Made by a program: the position numbers and the translations under genes. A stretch of 64,000 bases of DNA from Clostridium sp. CAG:440 (GTDB lineage: Bacteria; Bacillota; Clostridia; TANB77; CAG-508): positions 229 to 64,228 of the forward strand of contig FR898644.1 in assembly GCA_000437215.1 (NCBI GenBank), written 5' to 3'. Below, piece after piece: positions 51,083-56,656 of the stretch; within the stretch, counting starts at the first letter, position 1, and every line of letters begins with the position of its first letter. The notes under the pieces are model-generated. The model was not told the DNA's origin, ran no database searches, and saw only the letters and a list, made by a program, of their open reading frames with translations.

Positions 51083-52159
51083 ATGGATTATAAAATCAAA
51101 GAGTTTAACTTGCATATCACAGAACATTGTTCTGGACATTGTCCAATGTGTTATGCTACTGATGAAAAATTGCCTAGAAAACATGGAAGTATTGAAAAAC
51201 TAAAGTTAATAGTACATAATGCTGTTGCAAATGGAAAGGTCGAGCGATTTGTAATGGTAGGAGGAGATCCATGTGAACATCCAAATTTAGTTGAATTGTT
51301 AAAATTTATAAAAGACGAAGGAAAAAAATTTAATGTTAATACTAAAGCAATGGTAATATCCAATACTCATGATTATAAAGAAAATGGTAAACCAGTAGAA
51401 ATTGAAGAGATAGCAGAATATATAGATGGATTATGTTTTACAGTACATAGTGATAATGAAAAAGAACATGATAAATTCAACGGGTGTATAGGATCTTATA
51501 AACATGCTATTGAGAATATAAGTAAATATGCAAAAGTAAAAAAGAAAAATCAGGAAATTTGTATAATAATAAACTTAATGCCACAAACAGTTAATAAATT
51601 AGAAGATATAATGATTAATATTGATAAAGATTTGAATGGGTGTGTGGATGGGTTTGCAATACAAAGAATTGCACCTATAGGTAAAGCATGTGGTTCGGAA
51701 AAATATTTTATTGAACAAGAAGATGTTAACAAAGTTTTTGAAACTTGTAAAAAAATGAAAGAAGAAAAAGGATATTACTTTGAATTTGTTGATTCATTCC
51801 CGTTATGTATTGTAAATAAAAAATATTGGGATATGTTATATAAAGGAGGATGTAATTGGGGAACAGATTATTGTGCTGTATTTGCAGATGGAACAATTTC
51901 AAGATGTGCAATGTCAGAAAAGAAGTTATCAAAAAATGTAACTGAATTAGATACTCCAGAAAAATTTAAAGATTTTTGGCAAAATGATTCAGAACTTATA
52001 AAATTCAGAAACAAAGAACATTTGGATGAAAAATGTAAAAGTTGTAAATTATTAAAAGAATGTGGTGGAGGCTGCGTATTAGCAAGAAATACAGGTGATC
52101 CATATAAAATGGATCCACCATTAAAAGGACATGACTATCTTGCAAAAAGAAATAATTAA
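51083..52159 (+). CDS. radical SAM enzyme with C-terminal SPASM domain
   Basis: CSGHCPMC (CX3CX2C) near the N-terminus. CNWGTDYCAVFADGTISRC and CKSCKLLKECGGGC (CX2CX5CX3C) form the SPASM signature. ATG 51083 after GGGAGGGAG. Confidence 0.85.
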   Translation: MDYKIKEFNLHITEHCSGHCPMCYATDEKLPRKHGSIEKLKLIVHNAVANGKVERFVMVGGDPCEHPNLVELLKFIKDEGKKFNVNTKAMVISNTHDYKENGKPVEIEEIAEYIDGLCFTVHSDNEKEHDKFNGCIGSYKHAIENISKYAKVKKKNQEICIIINLMPQTVNKLEDIMINIDKDLNGCVDGFAIQRIAPIGKACGSEKYFIEQEDVNKVFETCKKMKEEKGYYFEFVDSFPLCIVNKKYWDMLYKGGCNWGTDYCAVFADGTISRCAMSEKKLSKNVTELDTPEKFKDFWQNDSELIKFRNKEHLDEKCKSCKLLKECGGGCVLARNTGDPYKMDPPLKGHDYLAKRNN

Positions 52160-52177
52160 AAGGAGAATGTGTGTATT

Positions 52178-53545
52178 ATGAGTGATTTTAATGAAATGGA
52201 TTACTTAGAAATGAAGAAAAATGAGATTAAAATATTTAGAGCAAAAGATCATGGAAAAGAAGTAGACAAAATTATGCAAAAAGATTTTGCAAGAATAAGG
52301 AATTTTCCTTATAATTCATATGATGATATTCAAAAGTGGCAGTTAAAAAGAATATCAGAAATAGTCGATTATGCTTATGAAAATATACCACTATATCATA
52401 AAAAATATTCTAAGATAGGATATAAAAAGGGAATGATAAAAACTTGGGAGGATTTCAAAAAGTTACCATTATTATATAAGGAAGAGCTTATCGAAGGATT
52501 TCCAGAAGAAATTGCTAAAAATGTAGAAGATTTTAATTTATCAACAAGAAGTTCTGGTTCAAGCGGTAAATTTGTAACATTATCACTTTCACTAGATGCC
52601 ATTTATACAGATACAATACAAGGAGTAAGACAACTTATGCTCCAAAGTGGTGATAATTATAAACCAGAGGATATTACTTTATTTATATATACATTGCCAT
52701 GGTGGATTAGAAATATAGATGGAAAATATAAACAAGACTTTCTACCAACTACATCATCAGTGGAAGAGGTTATAAAGAAATTAGAAGAAATTCATCCTAA
52801 AATAATTTCTACATATCCAACTTATTTAACTAAAATGGTACCTTATGGGATAGATTTGAAGAAATATGGTGTAGAATTAGTAATTGTTCATTCTGAACAA
52901 TCTACTAGACAATCAAGAGATATGTTAGAAAAAGCATTAAATGTAAAAGTACTTGATGAGTATAGTAGTGAAGAATTAACTAGAATTGCTCTTGAATGTC
53001 CAGAACATATATATCATTTAGAAGAAGATGCTTGTTACATAGAGATTGTTGATCCAAAAACAAAAGAAAATAAAAACTATGGAGAAAGAGGAGTTGTAGT
53101 AGGAACAAATTTATTAAATATGTCAACACCTATAATAAGATATTATCAAGGAGATTTGGCTGAAATGGAAAAGCCAGTAAAATGTAAATGTGGAAACAAT
53201 TGTAGGATATTGAAAAATATAAATGGAAGATATATGGATAGTATTATAACAGAAGATAATAAAATAATTCCAGCTTCAGCATTTATGGATATAGCATATA
53301 ACTGGTTTTCAACACTTAGAATTCCTATACATGGATTAAGGTATCAATTTATTCAACATTATAAAGGAACATTAGAATTATATCTGATAAAAGGAAAATA
53401 TGAAATTGATATTCAAAAAATAAGGGATAGCTTATATACACTTATTCCAAAAGATATGAAGCTTGAGATAAAATTTGTAAGCGAACTTCCTGAAACAGGA
53501 CAAAAATATAGACCAGTTATTAGTTTTGTTAAGGAAGGAAAATAA
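52178..53545 (+). CDS. PaaK/CapK-like adenylate-forming enzyme (F390 synthetase family), paralog 1
   Basis: LSTRSSGSSGKF AMP-binding P-loop-like motif, YSSEE, RYYQGD, QKYRPVISF tail. Confidence 0.7.
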   Translation: MSDFNEMDYLEMKKNEIKIFRAKDHGKEVDKIMQKDFARIRNFPYNSYDDIQKWQLKRISEIVDYAYENIPLYHKKYSKIGYKKGMIKTWEDFKKLPLLYKEELIEGFPEEIAKNVEDFNLSTRSSGSSGKFVTLSLSLDAIYTDTIQGVRQLMLQSGDNYKPEDITLFIYTLPWWIRNIDGKYKQDFLPTTSSVEEVIKKLEEIHPKIISTYPTYLTKMVPYGIDLKKYGVELVIVHSEQSTRQSRDMLEKALNVKVLDEYSSEELTRIALECPEHIYHLEEDACYIEIVDPKTKENKNYGERGVVVGTNLLNMSTPIIRYYQGDLAEMEKPVKCKCGNNCRILKNINGRYMDSIITEDNKIIPASAFMDIAYNWFSTLRIPIHGLRYQFIQHYKGTLELYLIKGKYEIDIQKIRDSLYTLIPKDMKLEIKFVSELPETGQKYRPVISFVKEGK

Positions 53546-54912: not shown

Positions 54913-56133
54913 ATGGATATGAATGATATATTAAATTGTACTAATATTGGAAAAAGTGATTTAGATAATGCAAAATTACTTGTGGAAAATAAAATAAAAG
55001 AATTAAGGGATTGTACTCCAAATGTTAAATTTGAACACAATAAGTTAGCGGAAGTTGAAATTAATAAGTTTTTTTATAACAAAGAAACCGTAGATCGAGT
55101 TATGATAGTATTAAGAGCTAATGGATGTGAACATTATAAACAAGACGGAGGGTGTTCGATGTGTTCTCATTTTAATGGAACAGATAGAAATGCTGAAATT
55201 ACAACGGAAGAATATATTGAACAATGGAAAAATGTTATAAATGGAACTGGATTAAATTGTAATAATTTTAATTTGAATAATTACCCTGTGGTATGTGTAT
55301 ATAACTTAGGAAGTCTTTTGAATGAAAATGAAATATCAAAAGATGCAGTTAGCTATATATTTAAATCATTGAATTCTTATGATGGAATAAAAAAGGTAAT
55401 TATTGAATCAAGAGCAGAATATGTGAAAGATGAAGTATTACAAAATATATCAGAAATTTATAAAAATGGCATTATGGAAGTTGGAATAGGAGTAGAGTCA
55501 ACTAACAGAATTGTTAGAGAAATATGTCATCATAAAGGAATTGATAATTTATCAATAATAAAAGATGCAGTTTCTCTATTGCACAAATACAAATTTAAAG
55601 CTTTAGCATACATTAACTTTAAACCAATTTTTTTAACAGAACAGGAAGCTATTAATGATGCAATAAAAACAGCAATAGATTGTTTCAATATGGGATTTGA
55701 TGCTGTATCAATAGAACCAACATCACTACAAAATTATTCATTGGCAAATCACTTATATCAGATTGGGCAGTATAGAGTTCCTTGGCTTTGGAGTATAAGA
55801 GATGTAGTTAAAGGGATATATGATGAAATGGAAAATCAAAAGTTAGATATTAGGCTTGGTGGATATTTTGATGAAGAAGTGCTAAGTGGTAGCCAAGGAG
55901 TAGGATATGAGGAAAAAAACGAGATTTTCCCTCATATGACTTCTTTGAATTGTAGTGAATGTTCAAATGAATTCATAGAGTGTATAAAAAAATTTAATAT
56001 GACTTATGATATAAATGAATTATATAATATAAAAGAATGTAATAAATGTTATAAAATATGGGAAGATGTAAAGAAAATTAGAGATTCAAGAAATATAATA
56101 AAAAGAGCAAATGACATTTTGGGAAATGTTTAA
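54913..56133 (+). CDS. radical SAM-like enzyme with non-canonical CX8CX2C cluster motif (TIGR01210/Elp3-like)
   Basis: LRANGCEHYKQDGGCSMCSHFNG. TIM-barrel-like core with GIGVEST. C-terminal Cys pairs CSECSNEFIEC and CNKC. Confidence 0.6.
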   Translation: MDMNDILNCTNIGKSDLDNAKLLVENKIKELRDCTPNVKFEHNKLAEVEINKFFYNKETVDRVMIVLRANGCEHYKQDGGCSMCSHFNGTDRNAEITTEEYIEQWKNVINGTGLNCNNFNLNNYPVVCVYNLGSLLNENEISKDAVSYIFKSLNSYDGIKKVIIESRAEYVKDEVLQNISEIYKNGIMEVGIGVESTNRIVREICHHKGIDNLSIIKDAVSLLHKYKFKALAYINFKPIFLTEQEAINDAIKTAIDCFNMGFDAVSIEPTSLQNYSLANHLYQIGQYRVPWLWSIRDVVKGIYDEMENQKLDIRLGGYFDEEVLSGSQGVGYEEKNEIFPHMTSLNCSECSNEFIECIKKFNMTYDINELYNIKECNKCYKIWEDVKKIRDSRNIIKRANDILGNV

Positions 56134-56152
56134 TAAAAGTGAGGTTAGATAA

Positions 56153-56656
56153 ATGGAGATAAGATTAGCTAAAAAAAGTGACTTGGATGGAATAAATCAA
56201 TTGTTTACAGAAGTGATAAAAGATTTGAAAACAAATAAAAAAATTGATATGCTTTGGGGAGAAGTTTATCCTTTCTGTGAATTTGATACAGATATTTTAA
56301 ATCAAAACATGTATGTATTAGAAGACAATAATAAAATAATTGGAAGTTTTTCTCTTAGTGATTACGATGATCCAGATTATAGGAATATAAAATGGACAAG
56401 TGAAAATAAAAAGTTTTTCTATTTAAATAGGCTTGTTGTTTTACCATCAGAACAAGGAAAAGGATATGCTAAAAAGATGATGCAATTTATAGAAGAATAT
56501 GCTAAAAGTAATAGTTTTGATGTAATTAGATTGACGGTATATTGTGAAAATGTATTTGCAATTGGATTATATGAAAAATTGGGATTCAAGAAAGTCAATG
56601 AAGGCAACTGGAAATTAGAAGATAAAGTTTTTATTGGTTATGAAAAGAATATGTAA
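56153..56656 (+). CDS. GNAT family N-acetyltransferase
   Basis: LNRLVVLPSEQGKGYAKKMMQFIE..YEKLGFKK. Confidence 0.8.
   Translation: MEIRLAKKSDLDGINQLFTEVIKDLKTNKKIDMLWGEVYPFCEFDTDILNQNMYVLEDNNKIIGSFSLSDYDDPDYRNIKWTSENKKFFYLNRLVVLPSEQGKGYAKKMMQFIEEYAKSNSFDVIRLTVYCENVFAIGLYEKLGFKKVNEGNWKLEDKVFIGYEKNM

Follow-up and report, generated by a model that had tools for sequence, protein, structure and literature searches.

A 64 kb stretch of DNA from Clostridium sp. CAG:440, called the window here, carries at positions 50542-62294 a block of genes built around two enzymes: a PaaK-like adenylate-forming ligase (hereafter the adenylase) and, directly downstream, a radical S-adenosylmethionine (radical SAM) enzyme resembling RaSEA of archaeosine biosynthesis. 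The block is probably a single cluster controlled by an XRE-family regulator, and its gene content suggests a small, amino-acid-derived product, probably a short pseudo-peptide. With moderate confidence, we read it as a biosynthetic cluster for an exported small molecule that would target translation, equipped with self-protection for the producer. We infer the product, its target and each chemical step from the gene content, synteny, shared operator and family assignments described below.

A conserved pair of enzymes in 40 of 42 loci

A homolog search with the RaSEA-like protein gave 359 relatives, and a scan of one genome per species yielded 42 non-redundant loci, the window included. Homologous loci were numbered (L001 and so on), the proteins of the window were mapped onto all of them, and all neighbouring open reading frames (ORFs) were clustered. 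The conserved core is one adenylase and one radical SAM enzyme with a CX8CX2C motif. In 40 of the 42 loci, including those of DPANN archaea and of a Candidate Phyla Radiation (CPR) bacterium, the adenylase gene stands immediately upstream of the RaSEA-like gene, at a distance of 1-5 nt in the loci inspected. In L032 and L033, an MprF-C-like aminoacyl-tRNA-dependent transferase takes the place of the adenylase. This swap is probably a non-orthologous displacement and suggests an aminoacyl-type ligation; the adenylase step would then probably be the attachment of an amino-acid-like residue. In the window, the core and its duplicate are as follows.

52169..53545, plus strand: PaaK-like adenylate-forming ligase, copy 1, ortholog of the single adenylase of other loci (96% identical to the L009 adenylase)
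53545..54909, plus strand: PaaK-like adenylate-forming ligase, copy 2, a lineage-specific tandem duplicate (79% identical to copy 1)
54913..56133, plus strand: RaSEA-like (TIGR01210-family) radical SAM enzyme, the core enzyme, with CX8CX2C and a C-terminal CX2C...CX2C (TIGR01210 match, invariant cysteines)

The only NCBIfam match of the RaSEA-like enzyme was TIGR01210, "archaeosine biosynthesis radical SAM protein RaSEA", at 203.2 bits a near miss of the cut-off of 212.15; residues 61-385 of the protein align with positions 14-301 of the 313 of the model. Its cluster motif is C72-X8-C81-X2-C84, and the three cysteines are invariant in an alignment of 12 sequences. In a library clustered at 50% identity, a single full-length representative was found (50% identity, 424 bits); the remaining full-length proteins scored 195 bits or less, and the other high scorers were fragments. 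This drop in score among full-length proteins sets the enzyme in a tight, separate subfamily of TIGR01210. No solved relative was found by a sequence search of the PDB. The AlphaFold model (pLDDT 76.6, pTM 0.84) had as its matches the radical SAM barrels of lysine 2,3-aminomutase, MgmA, Elp3 and MiaB, at TM of about 0.4.

RaSEA shows activity only when complexed with ArcS. Lysine is joined to preQ0 by ArcS, and the resulting adduct is then turned into the amidine by RaSEA (PMC11298593). The core pair recalls this euryarchaeal system in three ways. The radical SAM enzyme spans almost the whole TIGR01210 model (203 bits), its gene invariably stands beside one for an enzyme that would attach a residue, and in two loci this partner is an aminoacyl-tRNA-dependent transferase. 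However, it scores under the curated cut-off and its subfamily lies sharply apart from other TIGR01210 members; it carries 60 extra residues at its N terminus and a CX2C...CX2C tail; its partner is a PaaK-like adenylase, whereas ArcS is of the TGT family; and its hosts are mainly bacteria, where it is found among exporters and resistance-like genes. No ArcS partner, that is, no TGT-family lysine transferase, was found, the upstream gene being the adenylase in 40 loci and the MprF-C-like transferase in two, with no TGT- or PUA-type gene. Homology to a tRNA-modification pathway had been named by a preliminary description of this DNA as a finding that would speak against its view; such homology is nearly reached (203 versus 212 bits), but the context is not that of archaeosine synthesis.

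The core enzyme can also be compared with Elp3, a radical SAM enzyme with a GNAT/KAT acetyltransferase domain that acts on tRNA U34. A GNAT gene follows the RaSEA-like gene in the window, the two are fused in one protein (P0085, locus L010), and Elp3 structures were among the top fold matches (TM of about 0.42). On the other hand, there is no match to the Elp3 sequence family, GNAT is missing from 31 of the 42 loci, and the similarity is at the level of generic radical SAM barrels.

The adenylases belong to the PaaK-like adenylate-forming superfamily, as judged by similarity to solved PaaK-family enzymes: a sequence search of the PDB retrieved PaaK chain 4r1l (E = 9.5e-21) and 2y4o (E = 1.6e-19) over residues 49-370. 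NCBIfam matches, of the PaaK/F390-synthetase type, were sub-threshold at 110-125 bits. The adenylase is not recognised as a phenylacetate-CoA ligase PaaK (110-120 bits versus equivalog cut-offs of 646-700), and no paa catabolic genes were present in any locus. Both copies have a Ser/Gly-rich loop, read from the sequences as TRSSGSSGKF and TRSSGTSGEF, and a C-terminal GQKYRPV. They share 79% identity as proteins and 82.6% as DNA. Copy 2 is restricted to the window and L011, and a neighbour-joining tree places it as sister of the clade formed by copy 1 and the L009 adenylase; it is therefore a tandem duplicate specific to this lineage. A perfect promoter consensus (TTGACA-17-TATAAT) lies at 53651-53679 on the plus strand, within the 5' end of copy 2; it may be a chance occurrence in AT-rich DNA, or an internal promoter that arose from the duplication.

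The five-gene group and its accessory enzymes

The preliminary description had reported, at 51083-56656, an orphan operon of five co-directional, tightly packed genes with overlapping or 3-20 nt junctions. All five ORFs were found at these positions, and the junctions measure, in gene order, 9 nt, a 1-nt overlap (TAATG), 3 nt and 19 nt. The five genes are thus real, but they are not the whole unit, which comprises about ten genes in several transcription units with a shared operator. Nor is the group an orphan, since its core recurs in the 42 loci and in many species. The genes that had been put foremost, namely the SPASM enzyme, the second of the twin adenylases and the GNAT protein, are lineage-specific accessories, found in 8, 2 and 11 of the 42 loci, respectively. 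Besides the core and the second adenylase, the group contains two genes.

51083..52159, plus strand: SPASM-domain radical SAM enzyme, predicted accessory tailoring enzyme (Pfam and NCBIfam matches; in 8 of 42 loci)
56153..56656, plus strand: GNAT N-acetyltransferase (PF00583, 67 bits)

The SPASM enzyme matches the Pfam family Radical_SAM (PF04055) at 55.7 bits, and its SPASM domain is complete (PF13186, 26.2 bits for a cut-off of 21.5; TIGR04085, 38 bits for a cut-off of 27). A CX3CX2C motif occupies residues 16-23, and CX2CX5CX3C is found in the C-terminal part. We place the start of the gene at the ATG at 51083, behind a GGGAGGGAG ribosome-binding site, in preference to the longer ORF start at 51056. 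The three-cysteine motif and the fold of the radical SAM superfamily are present in all three radical SAM proteins of the cluster, that is, in the SPASM enzyme, in the RaSEA-like enzyme and in a third one, named varSAM, described below. Relatives of the SPASM enzyme at about 50% identity (L059-L061) are stand-alone chromosomal genes consistently paired with a small PNPOx_N-like protein, and because these homologs stand alone, the gene appears to have been recruited to the cluster as an accessory. The PNPOx_N-like partner has a flavin- or heme-binding fold, and the pair is uncharacterised.

The GNAT enzyme probably serves self-protection or N-capping. In six loci (L013, L015, L020, L028, L031 and L034), it adjoins an ArgE-like M20 deacylase.

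Extent of the cluster and shared control

The conserved block is 11.7 kb long. Its DNA similarity is 93% to L011 and 85-89% to L009 and ends at 50542 and 62294, beyond which the flanks differ between the window, L009 and L011. L011 comes from a human-gut metagenome-assembled genome (MAG), "uncultured Clostridium sp. UMGS1901", whose RaSEA-like protein is 99% identical. Beyond the five genes, the block contains an XRE regulator, a split PepD-like M20 peptidase, an ABC-F protein, an ATP-grasp ligase and the third radical SAM enzyme. No convincing terminal repeats bounding the block were found; the long-range repeats are the operator copies. The regulatory features are listed below.

50587..50826, minus strand: XRE-family helix-turn-helix (HTH) regulator, divergent from the main operon (PHROG transcription-regulator matches)
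50880..50945, no strand assigned: putative 16-bp palindromic operator (TTAAGGAATTCCTTAA-like), three copies at 50880, 50908 and 50930, between the XRE gene and the SPASM start
50951..50979, plus strand: promoter-like site of the SPASM-to-GNAT operon, TTGAAA-17-TAAAAT (10/12 consensus; consensus match only)
62223..62293, minus strand: varSAM/ATP-grasp promoter at 62251-62223 (12/12 consensus) with a perfect palindrome at 62278-62293, next to the right end of the block at 62294

The palindrome TTAAGGAATTCCTTAA, searched with the pattern TTAAGRWATWYCTTAA, gave four matches in the window and none in 100 shuffles. The two divergent biosynthetic operons have all four copies in their promoter regions, and copies occur at equivalent sites in L009 and L011. 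A degenerate copy at 58293 overlaps the promoter of the ABC-F gene. The XRE gene adjoins the repeats; L011 has it together with the block (92%), and in L009 its conservation is partial. From this arrangement in the sequence, the palindrome is probably an operator, recognised by the adjacent XRE protein, that would tie the divergent operons together.

The remaining genes of the cluster

The right-hand half of the block contains the following features.

56680..58190, minus strand: PepD-like M20 peptidase gene (beta-Ala-His dipeptidase family), in three reading frames (family match; dN/dS)
58305..58333, plus strand: sigma-70-type promoter of the ABC-F gene, TTGACA-17-TATGAT with a TG extension (conserved in five loci)
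58365..60125, plus strand: ribosomal-protection-like ABC-F ATPase (NF000355, 468 bits; cut-off 380)
60186..61157, minus strand: ATP-grasp_3 amino-acid ligase (PF02655, 54.6 bits; weak MfnD and LdmS matches)
61147..62196, minus strand: third radical SAM enzyme, varSAM (NF045502 match below cut-off; CX3CX2C; PF04055, 35.2 bits)

The ABC-F gene is embedded in 33 of the 42 loci, and from its position a role in self-resistance is probable. The protein has the two ABC domains and linker of antibiotic-resistance (ARE-type) ABC-F proteins, and it passes the generic model NF000355. Four cluster ABC-Fs from other loci scored 443-462 bits with the same model, so that all five proteins scored pass this model and no other, none of them reaching the cut-off of EttA, of Uup or of a named resistance subfamily. 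The protein of the window is comparable to the self-resistance genes of producers (TlrC, CarA, OleB, SrmB) and to acquired ones (Vga, Lsa, Msr, Sal, OptrA, CplR) in being embedded in a cluster and passing NF000355; it differs in its scores with the named families (224-349 bits versus cut-offs of 680-1450) and in having no leader or attenuator. The start of the gene was corrected to the ATG at 58365, as the TTG proposed by the ORF finder (58305) is the -35 box. For the same reason, a candidate antibiotic-sensing leader ORF (MTKLHKN...) was rejected: the bases conserved in it belong to a promoter, as its -35 and extended -10 boxes, and its "TTG start" is the -35 hexamer.

The PepD-like gene is broken into three overlapping frames, roughly at domain boundaries, and the identical three pieces are found in L009 and L011. 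An intact ortholog of 503 amino acids, which passes TIGR01893, is present in L010. The dN/dS of the pieces is 0.12-0.33 at dS up to about 0.6, comparable to that of the intact neighbours, and speaks against a decaying pseudogene. Split subunits or recoding are possible.

The varSAM gene is followed by the ATP-grasp gene in 15 loci. The AlphaFold2 model of varSAM (pLDDT 94) had as its nearest folds ThiH, MqnE, LipA, HydE/HydG, BioB and NosL, at TM of about 0.48; this likeness of a model to radical SAM enzymes of free amino acids and small molecules is a resemblance, not a membership. Taken together, the fold searches with the RaSEA-like and varSAM models returned only generic radical SAM barrels (TM 0.4-0.5). 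A radical SAM gene directly followed by an ATP-grasp_3 gene recalls PylB and PylC of pyrrolysine synthesis, where a radical SAM enzyme acts on free lysine and an ATP-grasp ligase follows. PylB belongs to the ThiH/HydE/BioB/HydG/NosL group, to which the fold of varSAM is nearest, although PylB itself was not among the fold matches. Against this parallel, no match to PylB, PylC or PylD came near its cut-off (PylC, 29.6 versus 248 bits, from a different ATP-grasp protein), the TM of varSAM is only about 0.48, and PylD is absent. In L055/L056 (GCA_015493535.1), a varSAM homolog forms an operon with an ATP-grasp and an Orn/Arg-decarboxylase-like gene in the absence of the adenylase/RaSEA-like core, on a contig with many TPR, CHAT and pentapeptide-repeat genes.

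Two architectures around one core

The hosts of the core pair include gut Clostridia, Christensenella, Bacilli and Mycoplasma-like MAGs, Lachnospiraceae and Oscillospiraceae and, at 49-55% identity, Woesearchaeota, Aenigmatarchaeota, a Methanosarcinales MAG and a CPR Shapirobacteria genome. Two architectures were found around it. Type I, the majority, to which the archaeal and CPR loci belong, adds a threonine-synthase-like (ThrC-like) protein, a GntC/VioD-type pyridoxal-phosphate (PLP) enzyme, an agmatinase-like protein and a LysA-like decarboxylase, often together with a VOC protein (glyoxalase/bleomycin-resistance superfamily; 17 loci). Type II, that of the window, adds varSAM and then the ATP-grasp_3 ligase. 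Its variable extras are the SPASM enzyme (8 loci), GNAT (11 loci), a PepD-like or ArgE-like M20 hydrolase, a glutamate-2,3-aminomutase-like radical SAM enzyme, and exporters. All gene families of the cluster are united in one co-directional operon in L010.

Type I is represented by L005-L008, L014, L016-L030 and L035-L047, with one or two ABC-Fs, the second being OptrA-like at 676 bits. The archaeal versions of Type I add a Ddl-like ligase and a Peptidase_C39_2 protein, with a DRG/TGS GTPase in two loci.

A Type II cluster was also found in cultured Clostridium butyricum (L053/L054; GCA_963669125.1 and GCA_965251195.1), at about 6.0-15.8 kb of each locus; in GCA_963669125.1 it occupies about 74.9-84.8 kb of contig CAVLGQ010000011.1. 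It consists of two ATP-grasp genes, the adenylase, the RaSEA-like gene, varSAM, a MATE pump, an ABC-F and a GNAT, and it abuts a cyclic-oligonucleotide-based anti-phage signalling (CBASS) operon (SMODS cyclase, E2-like protein, patatin effector), near parA. The MATE pump scores 172.7 bits with TIGR00797 (cut-off 147.4). By sequence only, L040 and L042 each encode a further candidate exporter, a MATE-like membrane protein, and in L032 and L033 the candidate resembles an ABC exporter.

Mobile context

The preliminary description had placed the genes on a conjugative element as its cargo. The conjugation genes are real, and the cluster lies just beyond the relaxase. Between about 17 and 48 kb, the window encodes a conjugative machinery, with VirD4-like, TraC/VirB4-like, primase, NlpC/P60 and MobA/VirD2 relaxase proteins; a sortase, a SpaA-type adhesin and DNA methylases are also found within about 17-50 kb. 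A C5-cytosine DNA methyltransferase at 48107-49566 (plus strand), just downstream of the relaxase, consists of three overlapping ORFs (48107-48388, 48348-48617 and 48556-49566). At 15738-16508 (minus strand), a PBP5-type D-Ala-D-Ala carboxypeptidase gene is without its 5' part, the Pfam match beginning at profile position 111, and this truncation suggests the left insertion border of the element. The first element-like genes (HTH protein, sortase, SpaA adhesin) adjoin the truncated gene. No right border, integrase or attachment repeat was found inside the window, and because no right border intervenes, the cluster is probably cargo inside the conjugative element. In L009, the block stands between a serine recombinase with a Mob gene and clpB; in L001-L004, it is found among integrases.

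Plasmid and phage records contained no megablast match to the block, and a protein search of phages gave no homolog. The comparison with PHROGs was otherwise uninformative. In a protein search of plasmids, relatives had at most 31% identity, the best being on pSOL1 of C. acetobutylicum, in an unrelated context.

Discussion

A proposed pathway

The genes can be arranged into a pathway that would begin with a building block, supplied in Type II by varSAM and the ATP-grasp enzyme and in Type I by the PLP enzymes, the ureohydrolase and the decarboxylase. varSAM, whose fold is like that of radical SAM enzymes acting on free amino acids, would remodel an amino acid, which the ATP-grasp enzyme would ligate to a partner. 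The PaaK-like adenylase would activate a carboxylate for an amide or ester and so attach an amino-acid-like residue. The RaSEA-like enzyme, probably in complex with the adenylase, would then process the attached residue by radical chemistry, on the model of ArcS-RaSEA, where a lysine is attached and then cleaved, its nitrogen being left behind. The SPASM enzyme would add a lineage-specific tailoring step. For protection of the producer, the ABC-F would shield the target, while GNAT would acetylate the compound or an intermediate; the VOC protein may be protective too. The M20 hydrolase would remove a protecting group or activate the compound. Pathways for amino-acid antimetabolites follow a logic of protection and deprotection, or of pro-drugs, which the pairs of GNAT and ArgE-like deacylase and the PepD-like dipeptidase bring to mind.

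The dipeptide "Trojan-horse" clusters of tabtoxin, bacilysin and dapdiamide are similar in several features. They too have an ATP-grasp amino-acid ligase, a GNAT and/or a peptidase for self-protection or activation, LysA-, DapE- or ArgE-like enzymes taken from amino-acid metabolism and, in some versions, an efflux pump; weak matches to BacD and LdmS were found here. However, no gene of the present cluster reaches the cut-offs of their families. These clusters are not known to contain radical SAM enzymes, a RaSEA-like enzyme or an ABC-F, and their targets are metabolic enzymes, not the ribosome. The pathways obtained by tRNA-deacylase-guided mining and that of sinefungin were considered as counterparts and rejected, both being non-homologous. 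The preliminary description had not recognised the combination as a known pathway, and in the literature searched, whose coverage is incomplete, no description of the cluster or of the adenylase/RaSEA-like pairing was found.

Several points weigh against a small exported compound that targets translation. The closest characterised relative of the core radical SAM enzyme modifies tRNA, not a small molecule. The core pair is also found in DPANN archaea and a CPR bacterium, whose genomes are reduced and which are seldom keepers of antibiotic pathways, and the archaeal loci are without ABC-F. ABC-F proteins also have housekeeping roles, the self-resistance proposed here is deduced from context alone, and no antibiotic-sensing leader peptide or attenuator was found in the region upstream of the ABC-F gene. 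The PepD-like gene is split in the lineage of the window. The loci were gathered with the RaSEA-like protein as bait, and the co-occurrence counts are thus conditional on it.

A bolder version, which we put forward tentatively and regard as doubtful, takes the core pair as a general small-molecule device that attaches an amino acid and trims it by radical chemistry. The products would form a new class of ribosome-targeting metabolites, and the pathway would spread on mobile elements along with a new ABC-F resistance lineage; the producers would be gut Clostridia and Bacilli, C. butyricum among them, and an arginine-based second version would exist in DPANN archaea and CPR bacteria.

Alternative explanations

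The main rival, which we consider unlikely, is that the core pair modifies a component of translation, either a base of tRNA or rRNA or a protein such as elongation factor P (EF-P) or a ribosomal protein. An amino-acid-like donor would then come from the accessory genes, and the ABC-F, functionally linked to the pair, would be a translation factor and not a gene for resistance. The routes of EF-P modification, which use a lysine-aminomutase-type radical SAM enzyme, PLP enzymes and amino-acid ligases, offer a precedent. The core enzyme scores just below the cut-off of the tRNA archaeosine enzyme, the ABC-F is embedded in both architectures, and a DRG/TGS ribosome-associated GTPase stands beside the cluster in two archaeal loci. 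The pair is, moreover, 49-55% identical between bacteria and DPANN or CPR organisms, whose reduced genomes keep mostly informational functions. RaSEA itself works on tRNA in complex with an amino-acid-attaching enzyme (PMC11298593). However, the subfamily is sharply apart from the rest of TIGR01210 (424, then at most 195 bits), and the loci inspected contained no TGT, ArcS or queuosine genes. MATE and ABC exporters are found within several clusters, the pairs of GNAT and M20 deacylase and the VOC protein resemble self-protection, and the accessory enzymes resemble enzymes of free amino acids. Type II clusters are also patchy in distribution and adjoin mobile-element genes.

It is improbable that the cluster makes a peptide that is synthesized by the ribosome and modified after translation (RiPP), with the SPASM enzyme and others acting on a precursor that escaped detection or is encoded elsewhere. 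The preliminary description had preferred a small-molecule product and had found no convincing precursor ORF; on both points we agree. The 17 Type II loci share no conserved small ORF other than the XRE regulator, and the intergenic gaps are short and occupied by promoters and operators. The SPASM domain is complete, and the enzyme shares the full radical SAM and SPASM motifs with peptide maturases (sactipeptide and ranthipeptide enzymes, PqqE, MftC), with sub-threshold similarity to HxsC, ACGX, PqqE and sactipeptide maturases. ATP-grasp enzymes, peptidases and radical SAM enzymes are, besides, common in RiPP clusters. Unlike these maturases, the enzyme has no N-terminal extension of the size of a RiPP recognition element (RRE), for which there is no room since its radical SAM motif begins at residue 16; no precursor gene accompanies it, and its equivalog scores are far under the cut-offs. 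It is also an accessory, missing from 34 of the 42 loci, with 50%-identical relatives that stand alone, and the exporters of related clusters fit a small molecule.

Still less probable is an island for resistance, detoxification or catabolism, in which a compound from outside would be inactivated or broken down by the ABC-F, the GNAT, the peptidase and the adenylase. Three radical SAM enzymes and two ATP-dependent ligases in conserved order would be unexpected for detoxification, even though ABC-F and GNAT are classic resistance functions and the location beside a conjugative element would suit them. PaaK-type ligases commonly start catabolic pathways, but the present adenylase is far under the PaaK cut-offs, there are no paa genes, and exporters and aminomutase or PLP enzymes fit biosynthesis better.

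The least probable reading, that of an anti-phage or chemical-defence island whose radical SAM enzyme makes a modified nucleotide or other inhibitor as prokaryotic viperins (pVips) do, draws on weak pVip matches of the SPASM enzyme (PADLOC, 50.7 bits; NCBIfam viperin, 51 bits versus a cut-off of 180), on the position of the cluster on or beside mobile elements and on the CBASS operon that it abuts in C. butyricum, but the viperin score is far under cut-off and typical of generic radical SAM similarity, no gene had another match in PADLOC (2023), there is no phage homolog, and Type I clusters in long contigs are found among conserved flanking genes, not in defence islands.

Significance

The genes described here represent a family of probable biosynthetic clusters, so far uncharacterised, with putative self-protection by an ABC-F; no member of the core enzyme pair has been characterised. 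If the pathway proposed above is correct, gut anaerobes would harbour an unstudied and fairly widespread family of clusters for a translation-targeting compound, with its own ABC-F resistance gene on mobile DNA. This would bear on natural-product discovery and on the origin of transferable ribosome-protection genes, and it would mean that RaSEA-type radical chemistry reaches beyond archaeal tRNA, with a new ligase partner. Should the core pair instead modify a component of translation, the modification would be new and common to bacteria, DPANN archaea and CPR bacteria, and of comparable interest. Because the cluster is present in cultured Clostridium butyricum, the question is directly testable.

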